64,000 nucleotides of DNA from Escherichia coli (GTDB lineage Bacteria; Pseudomonadota; Gammaproteobacteria; Enterobacterales; Enterobacteriaceae). This document shows, piece after piece, positions 19,966-24,615 of the stretch. Both the position numbers and the translations under genes were made by a program. The stretch lies in assembly GCF_003018115.1 (NCBI RefSeq), contig NZ_CP027457.1, one strand, 5' to 3'. Below the pieces are notes generated by a model. The model was not told the origin of the DNA and searched no databases. It was given only the letters and a program-made list of their open reading frames with translations. The first letter of the stretch is position 1; every line of letters starts with the position of its first letter.

Positions 19966-20064
19966 TTCTTCAGCTGGAGAAGGGACAGTTTGCTATACAT
20001 GTTGGTGAAAGAGGATTTATATACGTTCATCGGGTCGCTGCCGTACCAAGCCTTGTCCGAATCC

Positions 20065-20198
20065 GGACGTAAAAAAACCGACTTCGCGTCGGTTTTTTTA
20101 CTCTTCAGCCCAGAGTTGGTGGCTCTGGCTGGAGTGAGATAGCCATCATCTAACGCATCAATGCTAATACCATACTGAAACTATTGCAAGGACGTGCT
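20065..20198 (-). repeat. agrA: Tandem repeat copy 2; candidate agrA-type small RNA locus
   Basis: Near-identical to copy 1 over ~95 bp with a few substitutions, similar over ~135 bp; same hairpin ccgacttcgcgtcgg flanked by A7/T7. Confidence 0.45.
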
Positions 20199-20216
20199 GG
20201 TTCTATAACCTGCATG

Positions 20217-20236
20217 TACTGTATGATTATCCAGTT
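20217..20236 (+). promoter_or_regulatory. LexA (SOS) box tactgtatgattatccagtt, presumed dinQ promoter operator
   Basis: CTGT-N8-CCAG close to LexA consensus CTGT-N8-ACAG; dinQ is a known LexA-regulated gene of the arsR-gor region. Confidence 0.5.
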
Positions 20237-20311
20237 AGCTCTGAGGCATTTTCACTCTGGCAATGCGCTTGACATCCTCCACGCCCTAAAGGACGTGGAT
20301 TCCTGCTACGT

Positions 20312-21520
20312 TCAGGCTGTCGCCTGAATCATTTCGGTGGGTTCCTGCTTCAACGGGCGGCCTGACTGCACCATCCCTCCACAGGCAAGAACGGCGTGCC
20401 CCGCCGCTAAAATGTTACGAGCGCCGTTTACATCGGCGTTCGCTGTATATCCACATACCGGGCATCTGAATTGACTTTGTGACAGGCGATTTTCTTTCGC
20501 TGTATGACCACAGCACGCGCAACGCTGGCTTGTGTACGCTGGCGGAACAGCAAGCACCTGACCGCCACGCCAGAGCTGCTTGTACTCAAGCTGGCGGCGC
20601 ATTTCATACCAGCCCTGATCCAGTATCGAACGGTTTAAACCTGATTTTGCCCGGACATTGCGCCCCGGCAGGCTGACCGTACCCGATGCTGACTTTGACA
20701 TGTTGCTGACCTTCAAATCCTCAATGACTATCATTGCGTGGTTTTTGCTGACGGTCGTTGTGACTTTGTGAAGGTAGTCCCTGCGGATATTTGCGATACA
20801 GGAATGCAGTCGCTGTATTTTGCGTTTCTGCTTCTGCCAGTTGTTGCTGAATTTGACCTTGCGGCTTAACTGTCGCTGAAGTCTCGCCAGCTTCTTCTGG
20901 TTTTTCTGAAAACTGTTTACAGGCTCAAAGGCTGTGCCATCTGACAGCGTGGCGAGTTTAGCCACGCCAGCATCCAGCCCGACCATTGATGCTGAAGGGT
21001 GAACCGGAGTTGATACTTCACTTTCTGTCTGAATACTGATGTACCACTTACCGCAGGACTGGCTGACCGTGACATTTTTCACAACACCCGTGACCTGACG
21101 GCTATTCCGGTAGCGCATCCAGCCCAGTTTCGGCAGAAAAATACGGCTGTTTTCCTGATCGAGCTTAACGCCCTGCGGGTAGCGGAATGCATCATTCTGT
21201 CCCCGCTTTTTGAATCGGGGAAAAGCAGCCCGCTTCTGGAAGAAGTTTTTGTAAGCCCGCTCAAGGTCTTTCAGTGACTGTTGCAATGGCTGTGAGGGCG
21301 AATCTTTAAGCCATTGCGTTTCAGTGGCGTTTTTCCACTCAACCAGCCAGGAAGCCATTTTCCCGTAAGGGATGTATTTATTACCGGCCTCATGATTCTC
21401 ATTCTGACGTGCCAGAGCACGATTGAAAACGAAACGACATGCGCCTGCGAAGCGCCTCATTTCACGCTCCTGTTGACCACCGGGTCTTAACTGGAATTTA
21501 AATGCCTGTAGTCGTTTCAT
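20312..21520 (-). CDS. tnpB: IS605-family TnpB/OrfB, RuvC-like with C-terminal CxxC...CxxC zinc finger (402 aa from [10 protein letters not shown])
   Basis: [14 protein letters not shown]-terminus, C-terminal CACCGH...CPVCGY zinc finger typical of TnpB. Confidence 0.85.
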
Positions 21521-21542
21521 GGGCCAAATCATACTTTGGCCT

Positions 21543-21958
21543 ATGAAAAAAGAAACCGATATCCGACGCGGAAGGCATTGTGTTTTCCTGATGCATGTTC
21601 ACCTGGTCTTCGTTACTAAATACCGACGTCAGATTTTTGACTATGACGCGACAGAAAAACTACGCACTTACTTTTCAAATGTATGTGCTGATTTTGAAGC
21701 TGAACTGGTTGAAATGGATGGCGAACCAGATCACGTCCATTTGTTAATTAACTATCCTCCCAAACTGGCGATATCCAGTCTGGTAAACAGCCTCAAAGGC
21801 GTATCGGGTAGGTTACTGCGACGAGATCGACCAGATATTGCAGCCAGGTATTACTACAAAGCGTTTTGTGGAGTCCTGGCTATTTTGCCAGTAGCTGCGG
21901 TGGTGCACCAATATCCATCATCCGCCAATACATTGAACAACAGCAAACACCTGGTTAG
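21543..21958 (+). pseudogene. tnpA: IS200-type Y1 (HuH) transposase TnpA, apparently frameshifted before the catalytic-Tyr motif
   Basis: HVHLLI HuH motif in frame 0; conserved C-terminal SSCGGAPISIIRQYIEQQQTPG is encoded in the +2 frame after ...YYYK (shift near 21858-21863); the frame-0 ORF instead runs on to 22046. Confidence 0.6.
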
Positions 21959-22015
21959 GTGGAAAACCGCACCTTATATCCCCGCCCTGAATGAACGGGG
22001 TTTTACGGCGCACCG

Positions 22016-22093
22016 GATAAAGCAATCATCGTTCTTGGGGCGTTAATTGCGCTGCTGGAACTGATCCGCTTTCTGCTTCAGCTTCTGAACTGA
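22016..22093 (+). pseudogene. dinQ: DinQ-like type I toxin peptide ORF (DKAIIVLGALIALLELIRFLLQLLN), lacking an in-frame start codon
   Basis: Translation matches the remembered 27 aa DinQ peptide from residue 3; in-frame upstream codons back to the stop at 21992-21994 contain no ATG/GTG/TTG. Confidence 0.45.
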
Positions 22094-22109
22094 TAGCGGA
22101 AACGTAATT

Positions 22110-22140
22110 AAGGGCTAAGAGCACACTACTCTTAGCCCTT
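22110..22140. terminator. Perfect 12 bp stem hairpin (aagggctaagag/ctcttagccctt) between dinQ ORF and the gor stop; bidirectional terminator candidate
   Basis: Inverted repeat read from sequence, 7 bp downstream of the gor stop codon. Confidence 0.5.
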
Positions 22141-22146
22141 TAACAT

Positions 22147-23499
22147 TTAACGCATTGTCACAAACTCTTCTGCCGCCGTTGGGTGAATGGCGACGGTATT
22201 GTCGAAGTCTTTTTTGGTTGCGCCCATCTTCAGCGCCACCGCGAAGCCCTGCAACATTTCGTCCATACCAAAGCCAATGCCGTGAATACCGACAATCTTC
22301 TCTTCCGGTCCAACGCACACCAGCTTCATGCGGCACGGCTGGCGGTGAGTGGTGACGGCGGTATACATCGCGGTGAAAGAGGATTTATACACTTTCACCT
22401 GATCGTCGCCGTACTGCTCGCGCGCCTGCGGTTCCGTTAAACCAACAGTACCAATCGGCGGATGGCTGAAGACCACGGTCGGAATGTTGCTGTAATCCAG
22501 ATGCTCATCCGGCTTGTTATTAAATAGGCGTTCAGAGAGGCGGCGACCCGCTGCAACTGCCACCGGTGTCAGTTCTACTGCACCCGTGTTATCGCCCACC
22601 GCGTAAATACCTTCAATATTGGTGTTTTGATATTTATCGACGACGATATAGCCTTTTTCGTTAGTTTTAACGCCAGCGGCTTCCAGGTTGATGTTGTCAT
22701 TGGCAGGCTCGCGACCAATCGCCCAAATCAGGCAATCCACCGTTTCACTGCGACCATCTTCCAGCTCCAGCGTCAGGCTGCCATCGGCATTTTTCACTAC
22801 CGCTTTCGGGATGGCGTTGGTGTGCAACTGCGGACCTTCGGCGTTCATCACTTCGACCAGCGTTTCAGAGATCATCGGGTCGAAGCTGCGCAGCGGCGCA
22901 TGTTTACGCACAAACAGATGCGTTTTCGCGCCGAGGCCGTTAATCACGCCAGCCAGCTCAACGGCGATGTAACCCGCGCCAACAACCGCCACGCGCTCTG
23001 GCAAAGCAGGAAGGGCGAAGAAGCCATCAGAATCAATACCGTATTCCACGCCCGGAATATCCGGGTGGCTCGGACGACCGCCGGTGGCGATCAGAATATG
23101 ATCGGCCGTGATGGTTTCACCGTTAACTTCCAGCGTTTTGGCATCAACGAAGCGGGCAAAACCTTTGATTACATCAACGTTATTTTTACCGAGCACGTTT
23201 TCATAGGAAGTATGAATACGGTCGATATAGGCGGTACGGCTGGCGATCAACGTTTCCCAGTTGAATTTATTGATAGTGGTATCGAAACCATAATCCGGAC
23301 CGTACATGTGGATCGCTTCACGGATTTGCGCCGCGTGCCACATCACTTTCTTCGGTACGCAGCCGACGTTCACGCAGGTGCCGCCCAGCTCTTTGGCTTC
23401 AATCAGTGCGCATTTCTGGCCGTACATAGCCGCGCGGTTGATGGAGGCGATACCGCCGCTGCCGCCGCCGATGGCGATGTAATCATAGTGTTTAGTCAT
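22147..23499 (-). CDS. gor: Glutathione reductase (450 aa)
   Basis: [19 protein letters not shown] motif, redox-active CVNVGC, full Gor sequence. Confidence 0.95.
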
Positions 23500-23570
23500 G
23501 ACAGAGTGTCCTTATCGTTGATTACCGCGATTGTAGCGCGAGACGTAATAGGTGCCAGCAATGGCTGCAA

Positions 23571-24413
23571 TTACTCCGGCACGATCCAGCTTACGGTGGC
23601 GTGCCCGGTGCCTGCCGGAACCAGTTTGCTGTGCAGCCACGGCAGCACGTTATTCATCTGTTGTTCCAGCTTCCACGGCGGGTTAATCACAATCATGCCG
23701 GAAGCGGTCATGCCACGGCGATCGCTGTCTGGCAATACCGCCAGTTCAATTTGCAGAATTTTGCGAATGCCGGTCGCTTCCAGGTCGTGGATCATGCGCT
23801 TGATTTGCTGACGCAGCACCACCGGATACCACAATGCGTAAGTGCCCGTGGCGAAACGTTTGTAACCTTCTGCTATCCCACTGACTACCGCCTGATAGTC
23901 GGTTTTCATTTCATACGGCGGATCGATAAGGATTAAACCACGGCGAGAAACCGGCGGCAGTTTGGCCTTAAGCTGCTGGAAACCGTCGGCTTTTTCCACG
24001 CGCGCACGGCTGTCTTTCTGAAATTCAGAACGCAGCAACGGGTAATCGCTCGGGTGCAGTTCGGTCAGTTGCAGACTGTCCTGCTCGCGCAGTAGCTGGC
24101 GAGCAATCAACGGCGAACCGGGGTAGTAACGCAACTGACCGCTACGGTTGAAGTGTTTTACCACATTGATGTACGCCTCCAGCTCCGCAGGCAAATCGTC
24201 CTGCTGCCAGATACGGGCGATACCTTCGAGATATTCGCCGGTACGCTCGGCATGTTCGCTACCTAACTGATAACGCCCGGCCCCTGCGTGGGTGTCGAGA
24301 TAGAGAAACGGTTTATCTTTCTCTTTCAGCGACTCGATGATCAGGCTCTGAACGGTATGTTTAAGGACGTCGGCGTGGTTGCCAGCGTGAAAGCTGTGGC
24401 GATAACTGAGCAT
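23571..24413 (-). CDS. rlmJ: 23S rRNA (adenine2030-N6)-methyltransferase RlmJ (280 aa; start at MLSYRHSFHAG)
   Basis: Matches RlmJ/YhiR; track ORF has a 17 aa upstream extension. Confidence 0.85.
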   Translation of the reverse strand: MLSYRHSFHAGNHADVLKHTVQSLIIESLKEKDKPFLYLDTHAGAGRYQLGSEHAERTGEYLEGIARIWQQDDLPAELEAYINVVKHFNRSGQLRYYPGSPLIARQLLREQDSLQLTELHPSDYPLLRSEFQKDSRARVEKADGFQQLKAKLPPVSRRGLILIDPPYEMKTDYQAVVSGIAEGYKRFATGTYALWYPVVLRQQIKRMIHDLEATGIRKILQIELAVLPDSDRRGMTASGMIVINPPWKLEQQMNNVLPWLHSKLVPAGTGHATVSWIVPE

Positions 24414-24615
24414 GGGTAAAGGTGTTCCGGTAAGTAAAAATCGGCCCGTATTCGGGGCGCACAAAAGCCTATCAGGACAGTATACCGAAAAGAGGCCGCC
24501 GCCGCGAAAGCGTAACGTTTCTCATTGAAATTCACTACACTTAACCCCATGCTACACACATTATGTAAAGCGCCTGTTGAGCGCTTCCTTAACCTCTTTA
24601 ACCAGGACTGCGCTA

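Follow-up and report, generated by a model that had tools for sequence, protein, structure and literature searches.

What becomes of a type I toxin gene when an insertion sequence lies between its LexA-controlled promoter and its reading frame, and by what route did that arrangement arise? The window, which is the whole 64,000-nucleotide stretch of Escherichia coli DNA analysed here, includes the arsR–gor intergenic region, with two agr antisense RNAs, the LexA box and promoter of dinQ, and the 3′ part of the DinQ ORF. We conclude from comparisons of sequence that this locus is very probably a fixed, old null allele of dinQ, the gene for an SOS-induced membrane toxin, produced by insertion of IS609 together with the loss of 166 bp of the gene. 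The native parts of the locus that survive are the following.

19837-19918, minus strand: agrB-type antisense sRNA, arsR-proximal copy (Rfam RF02891, 79.5 bits, full length)
20069-20153, minus strand: agrA-type antisense sRNA, dinQ-proximal copy (Rfam RF02891, 90.7 bits, full length)
20217-20236, plus strand: LexA operator of dinQ, sequence TACTGTATGATTATCCAGTT, with the same letters as the IS-free allele
20222-20227, plus strand: -10 hexamer TATGAT, overlapped by the LexA operator and matching wild type
20234-20268, plus strand: kept dinQ leader, +1 to +35, including 'sequence 1' (U16-C28)
22017-22093, plus strand: what is left of the DinQ ORF, running from wild-type +202 (the AT of codon 3) through codons 4-27 to the stop, without SD and without start codon
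22110-22140, strand not given: dinQ/gor palindromic terminator, intact (terminator scan)

The published map of dinQ places the SD at +184-187 and the GUG start at +195 (PMC5066626), and the +44 transcript, through its GUG, is the sole source of the 27-aa DinQ peptide (PMC3567139). We located +1 in strain EC12 by counting back from the GUG (+195) and the SD (+184-187), and the published landmarks all match the expected letters there (SD GGAG at +184-187, GTG at +195, sequence 1 at +16-28 and the agrB target at +88-119). Both the LexA operator and the dinQ/gor terminator have been reported previously (PMC3567139). An earlier sequence-only reading of this DNA had proposed a LexA box at 20217-20236, and the box is identical to that of IS-free genomes; it had also held both agr loci to be intact, and both score well above the RF02891 gathering threshold of 40 bits. 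The two antisense RNAs were told apart by complementarity, using the 30/31 versus 25/31 figures of PMC3567139: the arsR-proximal, agrB-type copy matches the wild-type dinQ antisense region (+88..+119) at 32/32 positions, and the agrA-type copy matches the wild-type target at 27/32.

The element between the LexA-controlled promoter and the DinQ remnant belongs to the IS200/IS605 family, as had been read from the sequence, and is a copy of IS609. Its parts are listed here.

20269-22016, minus strand: IS609 copy (IS200/IS605 family), 1748 bp; the transposon top strand is the minus strand of the window
20269: IS609 right end, where the top strand finishes ...GTCAA
22016: IS609 left end, which begins CCGGTGCGCC...
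20278-20299, minus strand: right-end subterminal hairpin with a 9-bp stem (DNA fold), the same as in comparison copy L011
21980-22000, minus strand: left-end subterminal hairpin with an 8-bp stem, its core related to that of the right end (DNA fold)
22017-22020, minus strand: IS609 target motif TTAT (ATAA on the plus strand), adjoining the left end
20249-20440, minus strand: presumed TnpB guide RNA (omega RNA), with its scaffold at about 20269-20440 and a 20-nt guide, GCGCATTGCCAGAGTGAAAA, at 20249-20268
20312-21520, minus strand: tnpB (insQ-type RNA-guided nuclease), intact, 402 codons
21543-21958, plus strand: tnpA pseudogene (Y1 HUH transposase), with a 1-nt deletion after 21860

The ends were set by an alignment of ten copies and by three empty-site tests. 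Identity to IS609 copies at many E. coli loci is 97-97.8% over 1753 nt (BLAST, complete genomes), and the name rests on RefSeq, which calls the tnpA of the comparison copies 'IS200/IS605-like element IS609 family transposase'. There are no terminal inverted repeats, and a subterminal hairpin lies at either end, as the IS200/IS605 family requires. YTTAT stands 5′ of the left end in 10/10 copies, and at the yajI, ytfB/TetR and yedK sites this target motif is part of the flank in IS-free genomes. At the same three sites the left flank, ATAA and the right flank are contiguous in IS-free genomes, aligning in one piece over 400 nt at 100%, 100% and 98.3%, respectively. Thus, these insertions were simple, with no flanking DNA lost and no target duplicated. 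At dinQ the left end likewise adjoins TTAT, yet the flank of the right end differs from the expected neighbour.

Alignment to the IS-free EC12 allele shows that wild-type dinQ +36 to +201 (166 bp) is absent and that the IS sits between +35 and +202. The lost segment held the +44 processing site, the agrB pairing region (+88-119), the SD-controlling helices and the SD, as well as the ORF from its GUG start through codon 2 to the first base of codon 3; sequence 1 (+16-28) is the sole checked landmark outside it. What the window retains of the DinQ/AgrB system is therefore the LexA-controlled promoter, with operator and -10 as in wild type, and the agrA and agrB genes. The core of the 5′ UTR with its +44 site, the pairing region and the helices is absent, as is the 27-codon ORF from GUG(+195) with its SD, and no in-frame start is present. 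The sequence-only reading had the insertion separating the 5′ UTR from the ORF and removing the initiation codon. Promoter and remnant are indeed apart and the native start is gone, but just +1 to +35 of the leader is kept, +36 to +201 having been deleted, and the event was not a simple insertion. The start codon may have been taken away either by the insertion itself or by the deletion that goes with it. The check for an intact dinQ start that had been proposed, run against the IS-free allele and the published map, found the native start gone and did not refute that reading.

The ORF that had been matched to DinQ from residue 3 (22016-22093) exists, and its frame, D-KAIIVLGALIALLELIRFLLQLLN-stop, spans those positions, but its first codon straddles the end of the IS: 22016, the G of the 'Asp3' codon, is the final base of the IS, and native dinQ DNA restarts at 22017. 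In the DinQ frame, ACG GGG TTT TAC GGC GCA CCG comes directly after the stop at 21992-21994, and the letters bear out the claim that no ATG, GTG or TTG lies between that stop and the D codon. RefSeq nevertheless annotates a 22-aa 'DinQ' from the ATC codon at 22025, with no pseudogene flag. Additionally, tnpA is directed towards the remnant, and a terminator scan found no plus-strand terminator-like site between 21328 and the remnant. These observations could be taken to mean that the remnant is still expressed, from the ATC or by read-through from tnpA, and is a rewired toxin gene and not a dead one. We consider this exceedingly unlikely, although non-canonical initiation at a very low level is conceivable. 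No SD-like sequence precedes 22025, the frame lacks a start codon past the stop, and the frameshifted ORF of tnpA, where it overlaps the remnant, is read in another frame and ends at 22046; moreover, translation of wild-type DinQ itself needs a specific arrangement of SD and GUG, and the 22-aa annotation is homology-driven.

From the absent SD and start codon we infer that the toxin is silenced and that no DinQ peptide can be made. If no peptide is possible, agrA and agrB would be orphan antitoxins, and the arsR-proximal agrB is now without a target because its pairing region in dinQ is lost. The LexA-controlled dinQ promoter would now transcribe into the right end of the IS, antisense to the guide-RNA region and tnpB.

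The borders of the deletion bear directly on its origin. ATAA occurs just twice in 290 bp of the wild-type locus (EC12 positions 2081 and 2247), and the deletion is exactly that interval, so that its borders coincide with the only two IS609 target motifs (TTAT) of the locus. The left end of the IS adjoins its usual TTAT, in dinQ codons 3-4, and the right end now borders the base found just after the other TTAT in wild type. The route we prefer begins with insertion at the upstream TTAT, between +35 and +36, which would give an intermediate with the 166 bp still present (junction string GGCGCACCGGATAAACGCTTTCAAAG). Such an insertion would strip the inhibitory sequence 1 from a read-out transcript arriving from the tnpA side, leaving an mRNA that resembles the translatable +44 form. 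The 166 bp would then have been lost by slippage between the two GATAAA repeats made by the insertion, and selection against toxin leakage may, speculatively, have favoured the loss.

The same borders are also exact TnpA cleavage sites, one at the 3′ end of the right end and one 3′ of TTAT, the sole other such motif in the 290 bp. This raises the possibility that the IS inserted at the TTAT in codons 3-4, killing the gene at once, and that an aberrant intramolecular TnpA reaction followed. The right end would be cleaved as usual, the next same-strand downstream TTAT would be used as target, and 166 nt would be released as a single-stranded circle. The intermediate would have the 166 bp beside the right end of an IS lodged in codon 3 (junction of GGGTGATTG with TTGACATCC, string AACGGGTGATTGTTGACATCCTCC), and the product joint would be RE–GCGCATTG. 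In this configuration the breakpoints have no microhomology, so a chemical and not a replicative origin would be needed. That the target is recognised through base pairing with a left-end guide, whatever the distance, is established for IS608 (PMC3201880, PMC5934647), which we count in favour of such a reaction. However, the insertions at yajI, ytfB/TetR and yedK are simple, with no adjacent loss, and slippage between 6-bp repeats under the preferred route explains the same end product. No 'adjacent deletion' by IS608 or TnpA was found in the literature searched, and no intermediate allele among 5426 complete genomes. We therefore view this sequence of events as doubtful, if possible. The class of event it would represent, a transposase-made adjacent deletion in which the right end is joined to the next same-strand target motif and the intervening DNA is deleted as a single-stranded circle, was not found described for the IS200/IS605 family in the literature searched, and we put it forward only tentatively.

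The order of events could also be reversed. ATAAA is present at +36 and again at +202 of the wild-type locus, and slippage between these repeats might have removed the 166 bp first, with IS609 later inserting normally at the single TTAT of the scar; formally, a canonical insertion into GGCAATGCGC-ATAA-AGCAATC would look like the present structure. This order is improbable, as two rare events would have had to strike the same four bases independently, and its intermediate, an IS-free allele with the scar junction (GGCAATGCGC joined to ATAAAGCAATC, string GGCAATGCGCATAAAGCAATC), is absent from the 5426 complete genomes.

The allele is present in 6 of those 5426 genomes (full-locus BLAST, at least 80% coverage), namely five nearly identical carriers, two of which are labelled ETEC O169:H41, and one guinea-fowl isolate, GF4-3. 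An 80-nt junction query for the deletion-only allele gave no record at 80% coverage or more, and none of the six full-locus records is an IS-bearing intermediate. The junctions of GF4-3, checked base by base, are the same as those of the window, and each of the other five carriers gives one unbroken alignment at 99.9% whose only gap is 1 nt, so that a further 166 bp could not be accommodated. In JGI metagenome contigs, a degenerate right-end junction pattern covering the observed junction and both intermediate junctions had two matches; neither has BLAST similarity to the window and their flanks are unrelated, and thus we took them as chance.

The GF4-3 copy of the IS differs from that of the window at 46/1748 positions (2.6%), the two share just two derived characters, which are neighbouring ones, and the ten IS609 copies are related in a star-like manner. 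All three observations would suit independent gain of the same IS-plus-deletion structure by the two lineages, which would imply a deterministic, site-specific mechanism. We regard this as very unlikely. Both junctions are identical, the same T insertion and G>A mark the left-end hairpin of both copies, and the gor alleles of the two strains are closer to each other (98.8% identical) than to that of EC12 (97.1%). The tnpA frameshifts differ, that of GF4-3 being at 21615, and this fits decay after one insertion. Independent acquisition in GF4-3 was rejected on the basis of the identical junctions and the common hairpin mutation. Beyond complete genomes, the exact TnpB protein of the window is indexed in 275 blocks of public assemblies; all of the contigs examined (24/24) place it in the gor–dinQ′–IS–arsR context, and both TnpB protein types, that of the window and that of GF4-3, are always accompanied by the 22-codon remnant.

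The element had been called complete-looking, which holds for tnpB (20312-21520) and fails for tnpA and the left end. Relative to nine other IS609 copies, one G is missing after 21860 of tnpA, the frame shifts before the ...RQYIEQQ segment, and the catalytic-tyrosine segment falls out of frame. The IS200 transposase profile is thus split across two frames, with 110 bits over positions 2-97 of NF033573 (transpos_IS200) and a match to positions 102-126 in the second frame, so that 21543-21958 is not one ORF. RefSeq labels the same tnpA 'frameshifted' in strain F9792. Two changes, an inserted T (21992) and a G>A (21994), weaken the left-end hairpin, whose DNA fold energy is -9.2 kcal/mol here versus -14.1 in copy L011. 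The frameshift and the mutated hairpin argue for a fixed fossil and not an active element, a defective IS200/IS605 member that is probably unable to move on its own. Among the ten copies compared, that at dinQ has the most private substitutions (21 in the element).

TnpB matches NCBIfam NF040570 at 390.6 bits (cut-off 100) over profile positions 1-388 of 389, and Pfam OrfB_IS605 and Cas12f1-like_TNB matches are on record for an identical protein. The residues D183, E267 and D363, which we take to be those of the RuvC site, and the presumed zinc-finger pairs CACC (334-337) and CPVC (353-356) are present, assigned by family position on the model of ISDra2 TnpB and not by structural alignment. 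The protein has 10 differences from the consensus of the other copies. Estimates of dN/dS for tnpB range from 0.3 to 1.3 on at most 24 changes, counts too small to judge purifying selection. The 21 private substitutions in the element and dN/dS values up to about 1 show an apparently relaxed constraint on tnpB in the dinQ copy, and thus nuclease activity is not assured.

The guide RNA presumably lies where the sequence-only reading had put it, at the 3′ end of tnpB and the end of the element, next to the LexA box; Rfam matches in the region all lie below the gathering score (HgcC at 24 bits, E 0.0098, threshold 50; sot0042 at 17.5; RAGATH-18 at 28.1). Its extent was drawn from the family rule (10.1101/2023.03.14.532601). 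The fold z-score of the region is -2.6, and the copies, at ~97% identity, are too alike for covariation. In the IS-free allele the guide has a 20/20 match that directly follows TTTAT, whereas here GTCAA stands in front of the sequence. The presumed guide of this TnpB thus appears to match wild-type dinQ alleles next to a TTTAT motif, and the resident copy should be spared because its match follows GTCAA.

In most respects this is a typical IS609 copy. Those elsewhere, including the insQ copy between ydcO and ydcL in BLR(DE3) and the yajI, ytfB/TetR and yedK copies, share 97-98% nucleotide identity, the same ends (...GTCAA at the right and CCGGTGCGCC... at the left), YTTAT 5′ of the left end, and a divergent tnpA–tnpB pair in which, as here, tnpA is frequently defective and tnpB intact. 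Whereas the yajI, ytfB/TetR and yedK copies are simple insertions, that at dinQ has the 166-bp loss, its private substitutions and a mutated left-end hairpin. IS608 of H. pylori and ISDra2 of D. radiodurans are alike in having a Y1 HUH TnpA with a TnpB, subterminal hairpins in place of inverted repeats, and insertion 3′ of a tetra- or pentanucleotide without target duplication. The IS609 right end finishes in TCAA, as does that of IS608. The two models differ in their target, which is TTAC or TTGAT and not TTAT; the divergent tnpA and tnpB and the non-autonomy of the dinQ copy are further differences.

Hok/sok-type chromosomal type I toxin loci of E. coli K-12 were reportedly inactivated by IS elements (Pedersen and Gerdes, 1999). 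The likeness is that an IS has disabled a chromosomal type I toxin gene and the antisense RNA gene survives; the toxin family and the IS families are different, and dinQ adds a deletion bounded by IS target motifs. Compared with the K-12 dinQ–agrAB locus (PMC3567139, PMC5066626), the position between arsR and gor, the LexA box and promoter, the two agr RNAs, codons 4-27 and the terminator are the same, but the regulatory core and ORF start (+36 to +201) are gone and an IS is in their place.

We see in dinQ a commonplace gene loss whose one unusual aspect, a minor one, concerns mechanism. The deletion from motif to motif is a small hint that IS200/IS605 transposases may occasionally delete flanking DNA. 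Additionally, a natural TnpB with a presumed guide matching the wild-type allele of the gene that its element disrupts fits the published model of retention by cutting the empty site. Surveys of toxin-antitoxin genes should regard the 22-aa DinQ call in RefSeq as erroneous. What DinQ does physiologically is still debated, and a natural lineage that is widespread and lacks DinQ yet keeps both agr RNAs offers a comparison that already exists. This lineage, which includes ETEC O169:H41 genomes, could be used to ask how far DinQ contributes to SOS survival, to recombination and to persistence, and if the two agr RNAs act on further targets.

The dinQ locus of this window, an SOS type I toxin gene under LexA control with its antisense RNA genes agrA and agrB, carries 1.75 kb of sequence with 97-97.8% identity to IS609 copies spread over thousands of E. 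coli genomes, and has additionally lost 166 bp of dinQ itself. A recheck of the window sequence bore out every coordinate of an earlier sequence-only reading, and the locus is laid out as follows:

17990-23499: arsB–arsR–(intergenic)–gor region, inverted relative to the drawing in the dinQ papers
19334-19687, minus strand: arsR
19837-19918: AgrB-family RNA, arsR-proximal copy (Rfam, full length, 79.5 bits; gathering score 40)
20069-20153: AgrB-family RNA, second copy (Rfam, full length, 90.7 bits; gathering score 40)
20217-20236: LexA operator TACTGTATGATTATCCAGTT
20234: dinQ +1, placed through the published dinQ map on the allele of strain EC12
20234-20268: kept dinQ leader, +1 to +35
20269-22016: IS609 copy, 1748 bp, right end (RE) at 20269 and left end (LE) at 22016, tnpB sense strand minus
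20312-21520, minus strand: tnpB, 402 codons, intact ORF
22017-22093: DinQ remnant frame ...DKAIIVLGALIALLELIRFLLQLLN*, +202 onward
22110-22140: palindromic terminator
22147-23499, minus strand: gor

Elsewhere, a match to the shuA/chuA 5′ UTR thermoregulator (RF02597; 9652-9683, plus strand, 60.1 bits, gathering score 58) precedes a 660-codon ORF (9681-11663) that presumably encodes the ChuA haem receptor, and the window thus includes the chu haem-uptake locus.

To define the element we aligned ten IS609 copies with their flanks, namely those of the window and of strain GF4-3 and eight others from six further chromosomal sites. Similarity begins at TTGACATCC (window 20269) and stops at ...GGCGCACCGG (window 22016), and ATAA directly follows the element end in all ten. 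The ownership of ATAA was tested at three insertions by joining left flank, ATAA and right flank and searching 5426 complete genomes; the joined flanks are contiguous in IS-free genomes at yajI (100% identity over 400 nt), ytfB/TetR (100%) and yedK (98.3%). Thus, IS609 integrates directly 3′ of TTAT (YTTAT in 10/10 copies), on the strand carrying tnpB in sense, and does not duplicate its target. The RE of the window copy finishes in ...GTCAA at 20269, and related subterminal hairpins fold at both ends. The element therefore has the ends, hairpins and duplication-free target of IS200/IS605 and, by its sequence, is a defective member of IS609 within that family.

The element had first looked complete, an impression that its frameshifted tnpA and mutated LE hairpin contradict. 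One G is missing from tnpA after 21860 relative to nine other copies, which splits the IS200 transposase profile over two frames (positions 2-97 and 102-126); the segment ...WSPGYFASSCGGAPISIIRQYIEQQ, which we take from IS608 TnpA to carry the catalytic tyrosine, is out of frame. The LE hairpin has gained a T (21992) and has A in place of G at 21994, changes that reduce its predicted stability from -14.1 to -9.2 kcal/mol. From this damage, together with 21 private substitutions (the maximum among ten copies) and tnpB dN/dS values scattered from 0.3 to 1.3 on ≤24 changes, we conclude that the window copy is probably old and immobilised. Its TnpB scores 390.6 bits on NCBIfam NF040570 and has D183, E267, D363 and both CxxC pairs. 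The protein also has a private Q354P substitution within the second zinc-finger CxxC (CQVC to CPVC; region of 20353) and departs from the other copies' consensus at nine further residues. A broken tnpA with an intact tnpB is common in other IS609 copies too, and IS609 in E. coli looks like a population of mostly tnpB-only fossils. Several copies at other loci (L004-L011) have premature tnpA stops (GR*LRR) and an open tnpB.

The IS-free EC12 allele reads ...GGCAATGCGC/ATAAACGC...(166 bp)...GGGTGATTG/ATAAAGCAATC..., and the window allele ...GGCAATGCGC/IS/ATAAAGCAATC..., with the 166 bp between two ATAA motifs missing. The published map of the transcript, numbered from +1, has an inhibitory 'sequence 1' at U16-C28, processing at +44, agrB pairing at G88-A119, a Shine–Dalgarno sequence (SD) at G184-G187 and a GUG start at G195 (PMC5066626), and DinQ is a 27-aa peptide translated from this GUG on the +44 transcript only (PMC3567139). 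These landmarks all fall on the expected letters in EC12 (TTTTCACTCTGGC, GGAG, GTG), which places +1 at window 20234, and the window allele accordingly keeps +1 to +35 and +202 onward without +36 to +201. Within the missing part lie the processing site, all of the antisense target, the SD and the helices that control it, the GUG and codon 2, as well as the opening base of codon 3. The 'Asp3' codon of the sequence-only reading is a hybrid, with its G supplied by the final base of the IS (22016). That reading rightly placed the IS between promoter and ORF, but the loss of 166 bp goes beyond mere separation.

ATG, GTG and TTG are indeed absent from the DinQ frame between the stop at 21992-21994 and 22016, and an ORF with neither SD nor start codon would leave the SOS toxin silenced, as had been proposed. 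The locus thus lacks two defining features of the toxin–antitoxin system, namely the ORF initiated at GUG and the regulatory 5′ UTR, and is best described as a pseudogene of dinQ whose agr genes survive; both agr genes are intact, being full-length Rfam AgrB matches above the gathering score. In RefSeq (PGAP) the remnant appears as a 'damage-inducible type I toxin DinQ' of 22 aa with an ATC start (window 22025-22093; 3837-3905 of locus L001) and no pseudogene flag. We consider this call an artefact of homology-driven annotation, and such unflagged calls could inflate intact-dinQ counts in surveys. The frameshifted tnpA frame is open across LE into the DinQ remnant as an ORF of 175 codons (21519-22046, plus strand), which overlaps the remnant in a different frame, ends at 22046 and is probably meaningless.

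Within 290 bp of the wild-type locus, ATAA (TTAT on the transposon strand) occurs only twice, and the missing segment extends exactly from the first motif to the second; a random breakpoint would achieve this about once in 200 tries. Thus, the deletion and the IS target motif are linked. The identical product can be reached by three routes. We tentatively prefer a route in which the IS first entered the upstream motif (between +35 and +36), giving rise to two GATAAA repeats, one made of the IS-terminal G, ATAA and A and the other in codons 3-4, and slippage between these repeats then removed the 166 bp; only a short-repeat deletion is needed, and a selective push is plausible. After such an insertion, read-out from the tnpA side of the IS would begin beyond 'sequence 1', which may make it similar to the translatable +44 form. 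Insertion in codons 3-4, with TnpA then joining RE past the next same-strand TTAT and releasing a 166-nt circle, would proceed without microhomology at the breakpoints; the yajI, ytfB/TetR and yedK insertions, with tested empty sites, lost no flanking sequence, and we found no literature description of such a TnpA reaction; we hold this route to be rather unlikely. Slippage between two ATAAA repeats, followed later by canonical insertion at the surviving TTAT, is improbable, since two rare events would have to fall on the same four bases, and the scar-only allele is absent from the 5426 complete genomes. Neither these genomes nor the contexts of exact TnpB proteins held an intermediate of any kind, and two matches in JGI metagenome contigs, neither similar to the window, were rejected as chance.

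The whole arrangement occurs in 6/5426 complete genomes. Five carriers are 99.9% identical to the window (two labelled O169:H41), and the remaining carrier, GF4-3, is an isolate from a guinea fowl in the Gambia. Both junctions of GF4-3 and its LE hairpin change are exactly those of the window; its IS differs at 46/1748 positions, its tnpA is broken elsewhere (a 1-nt deletion at 21615), and its gor is 98.8% identical to the window allele, against 97.1% for EC12. We read the two as one old insertion-plus-deletion haplotype that would since have diverged; two independent events are countered by the same junctions, the same hairpin change and the closer gor alleles. The exact window TnpB has index entries in 275 blocks of public assemblies; in each of the 24 contigs read it lies between the 22-codon DinQ remnant and arsR, and GF4-3-type TnpB lies on two contigs in the same context. 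The window also shares a 7.2-kb stretch of 100% identity with contig ABKJFO010000007.1 of GCA_028184205.1. Compared with O169:H41 strain 2014EL-1345-2 over 17500-24500, it shows ~90 differences within 17500-19690, all in arsC, arsB and arsR, and only 2 within 19690-24500, which covers the agr genes, the IS, gor and rlmJ. This confinement to the ars genes points to a probable recombination breakpoint near the arsR/agr boundary, and to a dinQ::IS609–gor haplotype shared by different backgrounds.

Against the wild-type dinQ target, the arsR-proximal agr copy matches 32/32 positions and the other 27/32; the agrB target is missing from the window allele. DinQ would thus not be made, and agrA and agrB would be orphan antitoxin RNAs. 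GF4-3 has a single, agrA-like agr copy (about 1640-1760 of its locus, against window 19837-20153) that matches 26/32 positions, and the agrB-type RNA therefore seems lost from a genome also without the toxin. From the LexA-controlled promoter, which is intact, SOS induction would send a transcript through RE into the IS, antisense to the guide-RNA region and tnpB.

In IS200/IS605 elements, the guide of an RNA encoded across the tnpB 3′ end and RE comes from flanking DNA, and TnpA and TnpB share one recognition motif (10.1101/2023.03.14.532601). By this rule the predicted guide is GCGCATTGCCAGAGTGAAAA (20268 down to 20249), a 20-mer preceded by GCGTTTAT in wild-type alleles and by GATGTCAA in the window. 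An active TnpB would cleave incoming wild-type alleles of dinQ but leave the locus it resides in uncut. The candidate guide RNA region (20259-20439, minus strand) has a fold z-score of -2.6 and only sub-threshold Rfam matches (HgcC, 24; sot0042, 17.5; RAGATH-18, 28.1 bits), stacked on the tnpB 3′ end and RE; we take these to be RNA families that have since been identified as guide RNAs of TnpB.

Insertion sequences are known to inactivate chromosomal type I toxins, as at the hok loci of K-12; no paper on the present dinQ allele was found. The dinQ::IS609 case is biologically ordinary, and its main value lies in the motif-to-motif deletion and in a natural DinQ-null lineage as a resource.
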